In this document: positions 4,727 to 52,132 of the stretch, piece by piece
How the letters are laid out: each line of letters starts with the position of its first letter
Position numbering within the stretch: the stretch's first letter is position 1
From: Clostridia bacterium
Lineage (GTDB): Bacteria; Bacillota; Clostridia; Christensenellales; UBA1242
Direction: 5' to 3'
Assembly: GCA_017481235.1 (NCBI GenBank)
Contig: JAFUPL010000006.1
Coordinates: forward strand, 2,591 to 66,590
DNA: 64,000 nucleotides
Translations under genes and position numbers: made by a program
The notes under the pieces: model-generated
Databases searched by the model: none
What the model saw: the letters and a program-made list of their open reading frames with translations, nothing else
Told to the model about the DNA's origin: nothing

Positions 4727-7336
4727 TTACCTCACTTCAAAGTATATCATAAAACTGTCGGATTTTGTATTGGTTAAAGCAGATTTGTTATAAATTTCAT
4801 CAATTTTTTGTTTTGTTTCACGATTTATCTTTGACTTTTTAATAAATTCGTTGTCTTTTAGCTCAAAAAGTTGTTCTGAAAGCTCATTTATTTTCTGATT
4901 TTTTGCAAGTCCTTCACCAAAGGAATCTGTTGCTGATATGCTTTTCACTCGTTCTATTTCTCTTTGTAAATCTTTTATTTCTTTTTCAAGTTTTGATTTT
5001 TCTTTTTCTGCTAACATTTGTATGTGTGAAATAGGAAGTTTTGCATCTTTGTCTAATTCCAATATTAAAGGTTCTGTTATAATAGGTATTAAGCTTTCAA
5101 AATGATTGGTTAATGTTTCTTTAACTTTTTCTTCTATAAAATAATCTTCTTCAAAATCCATACACTTTAATGATAAAATTTCATCGCAAGTTGAATGGTT
5201 TAAATATTCATTATTATCAGTTAATCCAACACAATAAAGTTGACTAAAATGGTCAAATCCACTGGATAAGTTCAGTTTGAATGCCGAAATATATCCTTTT
5301 AATCCTTTTAGTTTTTCATTATCACTTTTTAAAATAAGTTTGTGTGGTTTTAATTTGTAGGAATATTCAAAATCTGAAATCATTTTTTGACAAGGTTCAG
5401 AGCCAATAGTAAATGGTTTGTAATTTTCATCATTTATAAGCGAGTATTTAAAAGGATAAGCATAAGGATTTTTATCGTGCCAAGCAGTTTTAAATTCAAA
5501 AGTGTTTTCATCTATAAACTTGTCTTTATAAAAATATCTTGCCAATTCTTTGATAGTGCCATCAAGTTCTGCAACTTTTCTTTTAATAATTTCAGCCATA
5601 TTTTTAGTTTTTTCAACCAGTTTTTTATCAAAAGTGTTAAAAAGAATATCATTTGACTGTGCTTTAATACTTTCTAATTCTTCTTTAAATTCTTCAGAAA
5701 GTTCAGTAAAATCTATTTGCACTTCTTTTTTCTTTCTAACATTTTCTAATGTATCTTTAATGTTGGTTTCAATGTCGCCATCAATAGCACCTGAAATAAT
5801 AGTATCACTTGCTCCAATAATGTTGTTAGAAATATTAAGTCGTTTATAAAACAATTCATACATTCTAACATCTGAAAAGTTTTCAGGACAAATAAAGTTA
5901 ATCACAAAAACATCGGTTGCTTGCCCAATTCTATGACAACGAGATATACGCTGTTCCATATCAAGTAACACTTGTGGGAAATCATAGTTAATAACAAAAG
6001 AAGATATTTGCCAGTTTAAGCTTTCATTGCCTTTATCTGTTGAAATTAAAATACTTGTTTTTTCACTTCTAACAAACTTGTTTATAGGTTCATTGTCGGT
6101 TGTTCCATTAAAAGAATTTACCGAATAATCTGTATGTTGCATTAAAAGTTTATGGATATGTTCTTGTGATTGAGTGTTACCAGTAAATATAACACATTTT
6201 TTAGCAATACCTTTTTTATGAAAAGACGAAAAAGTTTGTTGTAATGCTTTTATTAACATTTCATCTTTTTGATTAATTGTTATTGAAGATGCTAAATCTA
6301 ACATCTCTTTAATTTCTTTTGCTTCTTTTAAGTTTTCTTCGGTTGCTTGTCTATTTAATCTTACATATATTCCACTTAAAGTTTTAGAAAGTGCATAAGC
6401 AGAAGACGACAAAGTTCCATAAAACATTAAAGATAGTTCATAGGGGTTCATTTCAGGGAATGCTTGTTTTGTAGATTTAGCAACATATTTTTCAATTAAA
6501 GAGTATAACTGCTTTTCTTTTTCGGTCATTTTATAAATTTGAGTTAAAATTTGTCTTTCAGGTAGTTTTGTTTCAACTTTAACTTGACTTCTTAGTGTTC
6601 TAAAAGTATATGGAGCAATAATATCTCTTAACTCTGGGTAGTTTTCAGGTTTTCTAAAATATCTCTTATGAAATTCCTCGTAATCTGTAAAAATATTGTC
6701 ATCTATAAAGTTGATAAGCCCAAAAATATCATCTTCATTCTTTTGAATTGGTGTAGCAGTAAGCAAGATTTTCTTTGCATTCGGTATTATAGACAATACA
6801 GTGTCGGCAGTTTTATTTTCTTTAATTTTGTAAGTTCTAAATCTATGTGCTTCATCTAAAATACATAGTTGCCAATCTTTTTCTTTAAGTTTATCGGCAT
6901 TACTTATAACAGAATCATAAGTCGTTAAAACAATCCCGCTATCAAAACGAGAAAAATCAGTTGTGTAATTATCTGATATAGGCCTTTCAACATTATCTAA
7001 AACACAGCATCTAAAATCAAAAGTTCTAACAATACTTTGTAGCCAATTATCAATAGTTGGCGAAGGAACAATAACCAAACAATTACTTTTCCTTTTTCTA
7101 TATTGAGCTAAAATTAAAAGTGCTTCCATTGTTTTTCCAAGCCCAGCTTCGTCTGCTAAAATAAAACCTTTAACAAATGGGTTTGAAATAGCAAAGGTTG
7201 ACGCATAAATTTGATGTGAAAAAATATCTATACCACTTCTTAAATATTGTGATATTAAGTTTTCCATTTTTCCTATGCGTAAATCCTCGTTAATCTTATT
7301 TACGAGATAGTAAGCTTGAATCCTGTTATTTATCAT
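4727..7336 (-). CDS. SNF2/RAD54-family helicase with ~350-aa uncharacterised C-terminal extension
   Basis: Motif I ADEAGLGKT, motif II LDEAHRF, motif VI QRISRCHRIGQ. Start is placed at M79 of the track ORF (ATG 7334-7336), downstream of the promoter. M102 (7267) is an alternative start. Confidence 0.85.
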   Translation of the reverse strand: MINNRIQAYYLVNKINEDLRIGKMENLISQYLRSGIDIFSHQIYASTFAISNPFVKGFILADEAGLGKTMEALLILAQYRKRKSNCLVIVPSPTIDNWLQSIVRTFDFRCCVLDNVERPISDNYTTDFSRFDSGIVLTTYDSVISNADKLKEKDWQLCILDEAHRFRTYKIKENKTADTVLSIIPNAKKILLTATPIQKNEDDIFGLINFIDDNIFTDYEEFHKRYFRKPENYPELRDIIAPYTFRTLRSQVKVETKLPERQILTQIYKMTEKEKQLYSLIEKYVAKSTKQAFPEMNPYELSLMFYGTLSSSAYALSKTLSGIYVRLNRQATEENLKEAKEIKEMLDLASSITINQKDEMLIKALQQTFSSFHKKGIAKKCVIFTGNTQSQEHIHKLLMQHTDYSVNSFNGTTDNEPINKFVRSEKTSILISTDKGNESLNWQISSFVINYDFPQVLLDMEQRISRCHRIGQATDVFVINFICPENFSDVRMYELFYKRLNISNNIIGASDTIISGAIDGDIETNIKDTLENVRKKKEVQIDFTELSEEFKEELESIKAQSNDILFNTFDKKLVEKTKNMAEIIKRKVAELDGTIKELARYFYKDKFIDENTFEFKTAWHDKNPYAYPFKYSLINDENYKPFTIGSEPCQKMISDFEYSYKLKPHKLILKSDNEKLKGLKGYISAFKLNLSSGFDHFSQLYCVGLTDNNEYLNHSTCDEILSLKCMDFEEDYFIEEKVKETLTNHFESLIPIITEPLILELDKDAKLPISHIQMLAEKEKSKLEKEIKDLQREIERVKSISATDSFGEGLAKNQKINELSEQLFELKDNEFIKKSKINRETKQKIDEIYNKSALTNTKSDSFMIYFEVR

Positions 7337-7375: not shown

Positions 7376-7438
7376 TATAATTCTAATATTTGTTGTGTTT
7401 TGCGTAAATTTTAATAATAATTTTATCAATTTGAGATC

Positions 7439-7498
7439 GTGGCGTGTGCTTGTCTTGAACAAGTGCCTCGCTTCGCTCGGCAGACAAGCACACGCCAC
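7439..7498. repeat. Perfect 17-bp GC-rich inverted repeat with 26-nt loop
   Basis: GTGGCGTGTGCTTGTCT (7439-7455) pairs with AGACAAGCACACGCCAC (7482-7498). It stands out against AT-rich surroundings. Confidence 0.9.
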
Positions 7499-7529
7499 TA
7501 AACAATTAAAAGTGAAATTAAAGCAAAGG

Positions 7530-18242: not shown

Positions 18243-18269
18243 GTTTTAGGGTGGGATTCGACCCGTAAA

Positions 18270-18374
18270 GGGTTCGGTCTGTCGACCCGGACCGCAACAG
18301 AGTTGCTCCCGCTTTGTGCTAAAAACTTGCCACTGGCAACTTTTTTTAACGCAGTCGCCCCTAACTCTCCGCCA
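18270..18374 (+). repeat. Module X copy 1 (105 bp, about 55% GC), candidate structured RNA or att arm
   Basis: Near-identical to 19925-20029. It ends in the TCCGCCA core. Confidence 0.85.
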
Positions 18375-18383
18375 TAGAAAATC

Positions 18384-18408
18384 ACTTTGCTTAATGCAAA
18401 GTTTTTTT
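18384..18408 (+). terminator. Strong intrinsic terminator following X copy 1
   Basis: ACTTTGC-TTAAT-GCAAAGT followed by a run of seven T. Confidence 0.75.
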
Positions 18409-18546
18409 AATGATAAATGACTAATTAATAATGAAGAATTGAGGTTTTGTTTATGATTTTCTAATTCTTCATTTTTCATTCTTCACTCTTCATCAACCAT
18501 CATTCACCTCAACGGTTTTTGAAACTGACAAATAGGCTCACCAAAA

Positions 18547-18623
18547 TGTCTAACAAAAAAATCACACTTTTTTCGTGTCTAATGAAATTTGTTAGAAAAA
18601 TATTAGACAAAACATTAGACAAA
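18547..18623. promoter_or_regulatory. Operator-like array of TTAGACAA / TGTCTAA motifs
   Basis: TGTCTAA at 18547 and 18576. ATTAGACAAA at 18602 and 18614. All lie just upstream of the promoter. Confidence 0.5.
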
Positions 18624-18637
18624 TTTTAGAATTAGTA

Positions 18638-18666
18638 TTGAAAAAGTTTTTGAGATATGCTATAAT
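18638..18666 (+). promoter_or_regulatory. Near-consensus sigma-70-type promoter
   Basis: TTGAAA, then a 17-nt spacer ending in TGC, then TATAAT (extended -10). It lies 24 nt before the AAGGAG SD of the 288-aa gene. Confidence 0.7.
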
Positions 18667-18690: not shown

Positions 18691-19557
18691 ATGAGTTATT
18701 ATAATAGTGAAGAAGAATTTTTATCTGCATACACAGCACGTAAATTGATATTAGGGGGAAGACCTGTTGTTTGCAAAGAAGAATTGGAAGCAGCACGTGA
18801 TGAATTTTTACAAAGTGTATACTGCTCTAGTAATTTAATAGAAAAGTTAAATAAATTAAATTTTAATGATTTAGAAAAAATAAGCGAATTATTCCAACAA
18901 AAAGCTAGTATTAATAGAAGTTGGCTGAAACCCTGCTTTGTTTATAAGGATGAACAACTTTACCCCACTTATAACTTTTTTGATTTTACACAAACAACTT
19001 ATGGAGAATTTGTGGTTTTCTTAAGCGATAAACGTTATAATATTATTCCTAGAGAAAAATGTTCAAGATTTATGATTCGTAAGCAATATGAAGAAAATGC
19101 TTCGAAAGTTGCTACTTATTTAACAAAATACTTTGCCAATGAATACATAAAGAAAGAAATTAAAAATAGAAGATGGCCAAAGCATTTGAGCGATGTATCT
19201 TATTTATTAGATAAGGATTTAGGAAGAACTCTTGAACTTGAAGGAACACAGAACTATTTTAGAAAGTTTAGAAATAGTGCATTTATGGATTTAGGGAACA
19301 TACTTACTGATAGTAATGGAAATTTAAGAATTTCGAATGAAAGAAGTGGAACGTTGGCTTATAACAATTTAAAAAGAATGCTTACTGCATTCCCAGAACT
19401 TGATACGTTGAGCAGTGGGTATTATGAAAAGGGTAATAGCAAATTTAATATTACAATTAAAGATGGTATCATTAAATGCAATGAGACAACACTTGTGGAT
19501 GAAGATCCATATGAAGAGTTTAGCGATTCTTATTCAAATGAAGAAAAAAGCCTTTAA
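18691..19557 (+). CDS. Orphan 288-aa protein
   Basis: ATG 7 nt after the AAGGAG SD (the track start is an upstream TTG). I recognise no family motif. Confidence 0.6.
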   Translation: MSYYNSEEEFLSAYTARKLILGGRPVVCKEELEAARDEFLQSVYCSSNLIEKLNKLNFNDLEKISELFQQKASINRSWLKPCFVYKDEQLYPTYNFFDFTQTTYGEFVVFLSDKRYNIIPREKCSRFMIRKQYEENASKVATYLTKYFANEYIKKEIKNRRWPKHLSDVSYLLDKDLGRTLELEGTQNYFRKFRNSAFMDLGNILTDSNGNLRISNERSGTLAYNNLKRMLTAFPELDTLSSGYYEKGNSKFNITIKDGIIKCNETTLVDEDPYEEFSDSYSNEEKSL

Positions 19558-19602: not shown

Positions 19603-19924
19603 GATATAATTTTAGGGAGCAGGATAAGAAGCGGACTCAAAATTCAAATTTTAACTCTAAAACCCCCTATAAAATAGGCAGTTTTGTATTTAAAATAAAG
19701 GGATTACAAGGGATTTGATAATATAAATTATAAGAAGTGATTTTATAAATCACAATTGATTGTCATCAATTCTTGATAACGCAAAGTTCTTATAATTTTG
19801 AATTACGTCAGATTATGTTAAATGTGCATAAATGCCCGCTTATATAATCTTCCTAAATTATAAAATAATCAAAGGTAAAAATTAATCGGTAAAACTTGAA
19901 AACCGTTGAAGTGCGAGCTTCCTG

Positions 19925-20029
19925 GGGTTCGGTCTGTCGACCCGGACCGCAACAAGTTGCTCCCGCTTTGTGCTAAAAACTTGCCAAAGGGCAACTTTTC
20001 TTAACGCAGTCGCCCCTAACTTTCCGCCA
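19925..20029 (+). repeat. Module X copy 2
   Basis: Same 105 bp as 18270-18374 with a handful of differences. It is contiguous with Y copy 2. Confidence 0.85.
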
Positions 20030-20034
20030 AGCGT

Positions 20035-20079
20035 AACCTAATCCGAACACTTTCTGTTTTGATTGGGTTTATTTTTTTT
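20035..20079 (+). terminator. Module Y copy 2: intrinsic terminator
   Basis: AACCTAATC pairs with GATTGGGTT. The A-to-G change keeps pairing as G-U only in a plus-strand RNA. A T-run follows. Confidence 0.7.
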
Positions 20080-20131
20080 AGTTTGTATAAATTTGCTATA
20101 AATGAAAACAATAACATTGGGAGGTAATGTT

Positions 20132-20356
20132 ATGATTATTGCAAATATCATAAGTTTAATTGTTTTATTTATCGGTGGGTTAAATTGGGGATTGGTTGGA
20201 ATTTTTAATTTTAACCTTGTAGATTGGATTTTTGGTGGACATAACGCAGGTTCAATCATTATCTATATTCTAGTTTTACTTGCAACTCTTTGGCTTATTT
20301 TTACTGTTTTAACAAAACATGCAATATATGTTAGAAACAAAGATAAAACTTTATAA
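20132..20356 (+). CDS. DUF378 family small membrane protein
   Basis: GGLNWGLVGIF motif. GGGAGG SD upstream of the ATG at 20132. Confidence 0.75.
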   Translation: MIIANIISLIVLFIGGLNWGLVGIFNFNLVDWIFGGHNAGSIIIYILVLLATLWLIFTVLTKHAIYVRNKDKTL

Positions 20357-52057: not shown

Positions 52058-52132
52058 TGGTGCGTTTATCAGGATTTGAACCCGAACTAATGGTTCCGAA
52101 GACCATTGTGCTATCCATTACACCATAAACGC
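52058..52132 (-). tRNA. tRNA-Arg (anticodon UCG), CCA encoded
   Basis: Manual cloverleaf. Acceptor GCGTTTA/TAAACGC, anticodon arm ATGGT-CTTCGGA-ACCAT, T arm TCGGG-TTCAAAT-CCTGA, ending ACCA. Confidence 0.9.

Follow-up and report, generated by a model that had tools for sequence, protein, structure and literature searches.

Displaced, interrupted 3' ends of tRNA-Ser(UGA) at an integration hotspot in a Clostridia bacterium

Introduction

The window analysed here, 64,000 nucleotides (nt) of the Clostridia bacterium assembly GCA_017481235.1 (contig JAFUPL010000006.1, positions 2,591 to 66,590 of the forward strand), contains two copies of a GC-rich module of about 105 nt, which we call X, at 18270-18374 and 19925-20029 on the plus strand. 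The first copy lies behind the end of a gene for a large serine recombinase, the second in front of a gene of the DUF378 family, and a small islet with a single open reading frame (ORF), which we call E2, is enclosed between them. Read from the sequence alone, X had been taken for an autonomous plus-strand structured RNA with swappable terminators (referred to below as the original prediction). We found that X is a displaced and interrupted copy of the 3' end of the gene for the transfer RNA (tRNA) tRNA-Ser(UGA) and no gene for a new RNA, a conclusion that is firmly supported.

Most of the finding belongs to a known pattern, in which tRNA genes are integration hotspots and displaced 3' fragments of them stand at element boundaries. 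For annotation it means that such fragments can resemble novel GC-rich RNAs in AT-rich genomes. Two features go beyond the textbook, namely a conserved module of ~80 bp that interrupts the T loop in displaced fragments from two tRNA types, and an element with a large serine recombinase that has integrated into the final 8 bp of a tRNA gene and whose att half-sites contain GGTTCR.

Results and Discussion

The two copies, X1 and X2, enclose 1.65 kb as direct repeats and are 94.3% identical across 105/106 nt (blastn, E = 5e-38), and a third copy was not found in the 64-kb window. X is indeed GC-rich in an AT-rich genome, with 58 of 105 nt in X1 (55%) and 57 of 105 in X2 (54%) being G or C against 30.6% for the window. 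Along the plus strand the order is Y1, a leader of 27 nt, X1 and a terminator, T1, followed further downstream by X2 and Y2, where Y denotes a 56-nt repeat with a long hairpin and a T run (18187-18242 and 20023-20078, 98% identity). Both X copies end in C(T/C)TCCGCCA, and GGGTGGGATTCGACCC stands 5' of X1.

The origin of X becomes apparent from its two ends. Its first 7 nt, GGGTTCG (18270-18276 in X1), correspond to the 5' strand of the T stem and the start of the T loop of tRNA-Ser(UGA), and its last 16 nt, CCCTAACTCTCCGCCA at 18359-18374 in X1 and CCCTAACTTTCCGCCA at 20014-20029 in X2, to the T-stem 3' strand, the acceptor 3' strand, the discriminator and the CCA. Between these ends lies an insert of ~80 nt, M (18277-18358 in X1, 19932-20013 in X2), which replaces or follows the last T-loop bases, so that X is non-contiguous as a piece of tRNA. 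Directly 5' of X2 and running into its GGGTTCG, positions 33-69 of tRNA-Ser (CTTGAAAACCG…GGGGTTCG) were found at 19895-19931 on the plus strand with 100% identity, that is, a displaced 3' half of the attR type that begins at the anticodon loop and reaches the T-loop TTCG. Identical or near-identical matches to the genome's own tRNA-Ser thus amount to 7 + 16 nt for X1 and 37 + 16 nt for X2.

That intact tRNA-Ser(UGA) gene stands on the parent contig L009 (loci fetched for comparison are given as L numbers), ~6.3 kb before the window begins, where it adjoins the distal end of a ~24.5-kb element. On one strand the order is therefore tRNA-Ser, the ~24.5-kb element, Y1-X1, islet E2 and X2-Y2, with the tRNA fragments oriented like the intact tRNA gene and inserted DNA between them. 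In L002, L003 and L006, intact tRNA-Ser(UGA), Y, the 27 nt, X and a terminator follow each other in that order, and a junction like that of X2 with an uninterrupted T loop is seen in L014 and L026. Upstream of tRNA-Ser, spoIVB and tsaD are encoded in L002 and a DHH gene in this genome. The 27-nt leader (18243-18269, plus strand, ending in TTTTAGGGTGGGATTCGACCCGTAAA) is a degenerate, T-arm-like remnant that is kept in L002, L003, L006 and L026 and accompanies X downstream of Y in every case. It resembles AAGGTGGGGGTCGAT, the left flank of M in a second tRNA-type context described below, and M therefore seems to have moved with some of its left flank.

The original prediction had noted tRNA- or tmRNA-flavoured ends. 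The tRNA part of this suggestion stands, because the ends are those of tRNA-Ser(UGA), while the tmRNA part does not, as ARAGORN and Rfam were both negative. A tRNA or tmRNA gene at X itself was rejected on the same searches, the sole tRNA of the window being a tRNA-Arg at 52058-52132.

The differing terminators find their explanation in the same recombination events. Y1 (18194-18242, plus strand) is the native intrinsic terminator of tRNA-Ser(UGA), which is found directly 3' of the intact gene in L002, L003 and L006, and a Y-like hairpin follows tRNA-Ser(UGA) in the distant relative L045 as well. Y2 (20030-20078, plus strand, hairpin about 20035-20078) is a chromosomal copy of this terminator and adjoins the DUF378 gene at 20102-20356. 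T1 (18384-18409, plus strand, a hairpin at 18384-18402 plus a T run) is an intrinsic terminator that was brought by islet E2 and stands right of the CCA instead of Y; a homologue is present in L002, and other terminators occupy the same place in L003/L006, L026 and L019. T1 and the terminator of the recombinase element come from inserted DNA, and Y is native. Recombination at or near the CCA end exchanges the DNA that lies to its right, which accounts for the different terminators. Both the plus-strand terminator-like hairpins that differ behind each X copy (T1 and Y2) and their swappable nature are thereby borne out as a pattern, one produced by recombination at the CCA end. Our probability of roughly 0.7 refers to what X is and where the differing terminators come from; taken on their own, these two points would stand near 0.9.

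By contrast, the differences between the two window copies, which had been read as preserving base pairing, consist of a loop change (ACT in one X copy, AAAG in the other) and one A-to-G change in the Y stem that leaves a G-U wobble in the tRNA's own terminator; they therefore carry little weight. Genuine compensatory changes became visible only on comparison with other genomes.

Several junction types were found among the related loci. Identity with the tRNA extends over 56-57 nt (15 nt at the right junction of L019) from at or just before the anticodon loop in L014, L019/L020 and L026, over 23 nt from the T loop at the right end of an element with a leucine-rich repeat (LRR) gene in L026, and over only the last 7-8 nt in this window and in L029. 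In tRNA-gene integration, the regenerated gene and the displaced fragment delimit the island, and crossovers fall into classes at the anticodon loop and in the T-stem region (PMC4383910); the three junction kinds at tRNA-Ser correspond to known sublocation classes of this process. L002, L003 and L006 are without the recombinase element, and L014, L019, L026 and L029 carry different inserts and junction types. At this locus, mobile elements are thus indeed aimed at the 3' end of an RNA gene, as had been proposed. As a side observation on the LRR-gene element, the 23-nt direct repeat GAGTAGAATATGAGTAGAATTTT occurs near both of its ends (L026 1755-1780 and 4052-4077) and may be a candidate arm-type recombinase-binding site.

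The ~24.5-kb element ends in the window with the gene for a large serine recombinase of 510 amino acids (aa) at 16673-18205 on the plus strand (Pfam Resolvase, Recombinase and Zn_ribbon_recom), which is its last gene; the opposite end of the element falls outside the window on the upstream side. The parent contig L009 was traced through an identical protein encoded near the start of the window; on it the far junction reads …CCCTAACTCTCCGCCA|TTAGTAAATAAAACGAACC…GGTTCGTTTTG and abuts the intact tRNA-Ser(UGA). The element further encodes a methyltransferase, an SNF2 helicase, a HEPN protein, a rolling-circle Rep-like protein, a ResIII restriction enzyme and PcfJ. Its two junctions share nothing but the crossover core CTCCGCCA, the 8 nt that close the tRNA-Ser gene (18186-18193, plus strand; attR here, attL in L009), and their arms are unrelated. 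The element supplies the new hairpin and T run behind the tRNA, and the recombinase ORF in turn takes its end from the chromosome (…DSTPPSVT*): the six final codons and the stop (…PPSVT*) lie at or beyond the crossover, within the tRNA end and Y. The motif GGTTCR is present in 4/4 attachment (att) half-sites, with dyad scores of 10/22; this T-loop-like motif lies in ACGGTTCA and ACGGTTCG of attP, in the T arm of the tRNA and, as a mirror image of the latter, in Y (L009 19590-19716).

With its short core, unrelated arms and imperfect dyads, the junction at 18186-18193 appears to fit the att site of a large serine recombinase. According to a survey from 2014, no serine integrase was then known to use a tRNA gene as its target (PMC4383910). 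Elsewhere in the element, between the genes for the SNF2 helicase and the rolling-circle Rep-like protein (REP_ORF2-G2P), a GC-rich, near-perfect long palindrome, GTGGCGTGTGCTTGTCT…AGACAAGCACACGCCAC, was noticed at 7430-7506, a candidate that could serve as a replication or transfer origin.

Islet E2 is organised quite differently. From left to right it consists of T1, an AT-rich inverted repeat, a promoter module of ~170 nt, an ORF of 288 aa, a terminator, an inter-cassette module and an arm that leads into the tRNA 3' half. The left-end module (18497-18666, plus strand) is non-coding, contains three direct TGTCTAA and three inverted TTAGACA repeats as well as a near-consensus TTGAAA-17-TATAAT promoter at its end, and recurs with 81-87% identity in L002 (3330-3501), L003 (6533-6705), L006 (7251-7413) and L019/L020 (L019 7183-7280), with unrelated cargo behind it in the other genomes where this was compared. 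Judged by its repeats and promoter, it looks like an operator and promoter common to a family of integrase-less islets.

The single cargo ORF of E2 (18691-19557, plus strand) matched no family in Pfam or PADLOC, and no homology was found in two comparisons, with the cargo of L002 and of L003. The cargo at L019 7362-9026 is an OLD/GajA-like nuclease with ATPase and TOPRIM domains (PADLOC Old, E = 8e-24), the only islet cargo that matched a defence family, and at least some of the hotspot islets therefore carry defence genes. The inter-cassette module (ATTTTAGGGAGCAGGATAAGAAGCGGACTCAAAATTC…; ATTTTAGGGAGCAGGATAAGGAGCGGACTC…; 19607-19690, plus strand) has the same sequence behind cargo genes in L003 (~5895-6035, minus strand) and L006 (7795-7965) and is absent from L014 (150-240).

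Two further repeats were observed in such islets. A second GC-rich element, GGTGGTTCAGTTGAACACACCCCGAG…TCGCNCCCC, followed by a terminator, occurs in L003, L006 and L014 and starts with a GGTTC-based hairpin like M; the covariance model of M did not detect it. A repeat of ~140 nt, AAAACTGTTGGATTGTTCTAATAAATTTCTAACAAAACGAATG…AAATAAAGGGAT, borders single cargo genes and stands ahead of the tRNA 3'-half fragment in L014 (1-150 and 708-850), L019 (9712-9850) and L026 (1240-1390), an arrangement around single genes from which we derive an array-like cassette organisation.

The DUF378 gene is merely the next chromosomal gene, a conclusion that is firmly supported. Since X2-Y2 stands directly upstream of it, a cis-regulatory leader formed by X2 and Y had been offered as an alternative for this copy; with a terminator in between, it would be a riboswitch-like attenuator. 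Y is, however, the terminator of tRNA-Ser, and X1 is not beside a DUF378 gene. Most DUF378 homologue loci are without any X: among the loci fetched, X is present upstream of DUF378 in our own L001 only and absent in L014-L022 and L024-L048, which includes the DUF378 homologues at L015-L017, L019-L022, L030-L037 and L042-L048. L014 and L029 have Y upstream of DUF378 and no M, the L014 junction thus lacking the GC-rich core altogether. We consider a cis-regulatory leader of DUF378 extremely improbable.

The insert M is what distinguishes X from an ordinary displaced tRNA end. This GC-rich sequence of ~80 nt is inserted where the T loop meets the 3' strand of the T stem, taking the place of the three final loop bases, and is composed of an invariant 5' part of 42 nt, an A tract, hairpin and T tract, and a conserved 3' end of 12-15 nt. 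Its discrete nature is evident from sites without it. At its right junction L014 matches the window (…aatcggtaaaaCTTGAAAACCG…), yet its T loop is normal (GGGGTTCGAATCCC, GGGGTTCGAATCCCTAACTCTCCGCCA) and is followed by Y and DUF378, without M. The second tRNA-type context was found in one other Clostridia species, represented by several samples (L005/L008, L038, L039 and L041), in which M resides in a fragment of another type of tRNA (…GGTTCGAGTCCATTTGTTCCTACCA), present as a tandem duplication together with its terminator. L038/L041 retain the complete T loop, with M purely inserted at the T-stem 3'-strand boundary, and the first fragment copy is plain in L005 and L038 and M-bearing in L039.

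The distribution of the module is narrow. A 20-mer from X, searched against 185,579 species genomes (one genome per species), gave four true matches, two in metagenome-assembled genomes (MAGs) of Candidatus Onthoplasma (Christensenellales) and two in MAGs labelled 'Clostridia bacterium'; a match in Pseudomonas and one in a metagenome were rejected as chance matches in GC-rich DNA. Metagenomes of the Joint Genome Institute (JGI) collection were scanned with a 20-mer from the left end, and the genome and metagenome scans together turned up these lineages alone. M had no match among INPHARED phages or PLSDB plasmids, and pattern scans of IMG/VR gave none but one chance match, in a GC-rich, actinophage-like contig; that M came from a phage, plasmid or virus was rejected accordingly. 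Each genome contains one or two copies, all of them at tRNA fragments. No further or diverged copies were found with a covariance model (R1) in ~195 kb comprising the window and related loci, and four Z-type loci scanned separately yielded known copies only.

Two candidate identities were rejected on these grounds. The presence of the 20-mer in only four related MAG contigs of the 185,579 genomes speaks against X as a conserved host-gene fragment serving as an att core. A miniature inverted-repeat transposable element, or a miniature element derived from IS200-IS605, was dismissed because neither dispersed copies nor a longer relative turned up in the genome, metagenome, viral, phage and plasmid collections. 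A literature search on T-loop insertions in tRNA fragments found nothing specific. The observation named in the original prediction as speaking against a structured RNA, namely that the sequence occurs only as recombinase att arms, largely applies, all copies found being situated at junctions of inserts with tRNA-derived sequence.

To see which parts of M are constrained, seven X/M copies, six of them distinct, were aligned. Over its first 42 nt M is the same in every copy except that of L026, where a single change lies beside a bulge, and the rest differs by ~30% between the two lineages. Of four helices tested, P1 (GGUUCGGUC/GAC-CCGGACC, formed by the T-arm 5' half with the start of M) and P2 (GCAA/UUGC) are invariant, and a helix UUGUG/CGCAG taken from the minimum-free-energy fold (P4) was rejected, as it is only disrupted in homologues. 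P3 is the only one that covaries, with three pairs changed on both sides and the stem versions CTTGCC/GGCAAC, TAGTCC/GGACTA and TAATCC/GGATTA across genomes. In M1 this hairpin (18322-18346; A5, TTGCC-ACT-GGCAA and a T run) is terminator-like on both strands; across the copies it is flanked by A5 and T4-7 and matches the terminator pattern in either direction.

Of the covariation that the original prediction called for, the six distinct sequences accordingly show paired changes in P3 and none in P1, P2 and P4. The 42-nt core and the covarying hairpin together indicate that M is under selection for some role, and the comparison of sequences supports a constrained M with at least one hairpin that would form in a single strand.

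Other signs of an autonomous RNA were sought on X. Rfam 15 gave no match at the gathering threshold or at E <= 10, also with a 206-nt query and lax filters, and the highest scores nearby, 13-27 bits, fell short of thresholds of 48-110. Terminators are present, and no plus-strand promoter-like site (at least 9/12) was found upstream of X1 or X2. Folding energies exceeded those of shuffled sequences only slightly, with z-scores of -2.3 for X1 and -1.2 for X2, X2 and the minus strands being unremarkable. With no family, no promoter-like site and a single covarying hairpin, neither the RNA-family check nor the autonomous plus-strand RNA of the original prediction was confirmed. That the ORFs crossing X are non-coding does hold. 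The X copies differ by two separate 1-nt indels, and the one candidate frame, GSVCRPGPQQVAPALC*, which stops just ahead of P3, has no initiation codon, extends into tRNA sequence, is broken by frameshifts in X1 and L038 and contains no synonymous changes; a coding X was rejected.

Taken together, the stretch from tRNA-Ser(UGA) to the DUF378 gene is best explained as an integration hotspot that holds two insertions in this genome. In one, the ~24.5-kb element would have entered by a serine recombinase crossover within the 8 bp at the 3' end of the tRNA gene (CTCCGCCA); the other would be the integrase-less, 1.65-kb E2 with its operator/promoter module and one ORF, bracketed by the X copies. Each crossover at or near the CCA changes the DNA on the right-hand side, leaving either the native Y or the incoming T1 or element hairpin. 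The first bases of M would pair with the 5' half of the T arm, its A-tract/hairpin/T-tract part would evolve by compensatory change in the manner of an intrinsic terminator, and M probably spread among the tRNA-fragment copies by recombination or gene conversion.

As for its role, M would most likely convert the displaced fragment into a non-tRNA hairpin with a bidirectional terminator that insulates tRNA gene and islet against transcription from the other side, a function we propose only tentatively. Several points weigh against this picture of hotspot and insulator. A recombinase is present in the bracketed ~24.5-kb element and absent from E2 bracketed by X1 and X2; none is encoded in E2 or the related islets, and because of this their mobility is read from junction anatomy only. 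For the events behind the order tRNA-Y-27nt-X-T1, several scenarios fit and none is decisive. An extra terminator in M would be partly redundant, as Y and T1 already terminate. Lastly, the identity of the 42 nt, although the rest of M differs by ~30%, suggests a constraint beyond that on a passive scar and leaves the insulator idea incomplete.

The conservation of the 42-nt part, which equals that of the tRNA itself, would also be accommodated if X/M were a plus-strand small RNA (sRNA) linked to the tRNA, made by read-through from tRNA-Ser or islet genes and by processing, and ending at P3 or the CCA. This is in line with the covarying P3 with its A and U tracts and with the z-score of X1, and also with P1, in which a U-G pair would become an A-C mismatch in the minus sense, and with a change in the T-stem 3' strand of L002 that keeps a G-U pair. 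P1 and P2, however, never vary and so lend no covariation support, the fourth helix is only disrupted, and X2 and the minus strands fold unremarkably. There is no Rfam family and no promoter-like site before either copy, X1 lies 27 nt behind a strong terminator, and related genomes do without M at this very site, all of which leaves the sRNA rather unlikely.

A constraint on DNA instead of RNA would apply if M were a recombination module, that is, a secondary attB docking site for islets downstream of the real tRNA, comparable to an integron attI, whose 42 bp are bound by a recombinase or accessory protein acting in trans. Variable cargo does stand directly right of X (X followed by a T-type terminator and islet) in 5/5 tRNA-Ser-type loci, where the real tRNA keeps Y. 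Unrelated cargo lies behind the conserved promoter module in the genomes compared, and the cassette boundaries of L003, L006 and L014 bear another GC-rich, T-arm-like element with a terminator. The start of M and the T-arm half form an imperfect palindrome of 24 bp, GGTTCGGTC-TGTC-GACCCGGACC, and GGTTCR is shared by all four att half-sites of the resident serine recombinase. On the other hand, no recombinase was found in or beside the islets, the same islet type sits at a plain, M-less tRNA fragment in L019, and the covariance model finds no M-like site at other cassette boundaries. The conserved symmetry of P3 with variable sequence points to a single-stranded hairpin and not to a duplex site, and we regard a docking function as unlikely.

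The precise presence or absence of M at the same nucleotide in two contexts, its occurrence at the same T-loop/T-stem boundary of two tRNA types and its pure insertion into an intact T loop in L038/L041 could also be explained by a miniature, T-loop-specific mobile insertion, or by the fused arms of an element that integrated into T loops and whose interior was lost; at the right end of M a TCG(C)C motif recurs that recalls the TTCG of the T loop. The one or two copies per genome are all at tRNA-fragment junctions, though, and no full-length parent appeared in the 185,579 species genomes or, with the left-end 20-mer, in the JGI metagenomes. M lacks terminal inverted repeats and a target duplication and, at ~80 bp, is too small to circularise, and the tandem-copy polymorphism can equally be gene conversion because the flanks are 93% identical. 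This makes a mobile M quite improbable.

A combined version, in which the M-bearing pseudo-tRNA end is the docking site of a tRNA-linked cassette array with single-gene, partly defensive cargo, a shared promoter and an in-trans recombinase, M either marking or activating this decoy or being a miniature T-loop insertion, appears just as doubtful. If the docking site or the miniature insertion were true, an undescribed kind of recombination site within the tRNA T loop would be at hand, and should M serve recombination or insulation, it would reveal the way in which very small islets are arranged at tRNA hotspots of gut Christensenellales-like bacteria.

Among known systems, the hotspot with its constrained, possibly insulating M most resembles the tDNA att repeats of islands and prophages (Reiter 1989; Williams 2002; Islander, PMC4383910), in which a regenerated tRNA gene is followed by same-orientation 3' copies at the boundaries, including tandem arrays, identity starts at the anticodon loop, the T loop or the 3' end, and the incoming element brings whatever is needed downstream. 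It differs from them in that the T loop is interrupted by a ~80-bp module, the small islets lack an integrase, and one element uses a serine and not a tyrosine recombinase. Systems of the large serine recombinase type, such as those of phiC31, Bxb1 and A118, are known from phages. The ~24.5-kb element shares with serine integrase systems the gene at the element end, an 8-bp core without long attP/attB identity and half-sites that are imperfect inverted repeats, and differs from them in its target, a tRNA 3' end plus terminator; this comparison concerns the element and not X.

Short repeats or RNAs linked to tRNAs are also represented by the RtT RNA of the E. coli tyrT operon (RF00391) and by sRNAs from tRNA 3' trailers. 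X has in common with them that short repeats lie downstream of a tRNA, carry its 3' end and CCA and are possibly co-transcribed, but there is no sequence or Rfam match, a strong terminator separates tRNA and X, and the repeats stand at insert junctions. P3 agrees with Rho-independent bidirectional terminators in its A tract, short GC-containing stem, 3-4-nt loop, T tract and compensatory stem changes, and departs from them in being part of a longer invariant T-loop module with conserved sequence past the T tract. The likeness to tmRNA or tRNA-like domains is confined to a GGATTCGAC-like motif in the leader and the 3' end …CCGCCA, whereas X has no acceptor 5' strand, tag reading frame or T arm, in agreement with the negative ARAGORN and Rfam searches.

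It is finally worth mentioning that metagenome contigs of several samples end in or near X/M or the tRNA fragment (L001, L024, L025, L039-L041 and many DUF378 contigs), which suggests strain-level heterogeneity or assembly-breaking repeats at this locus.

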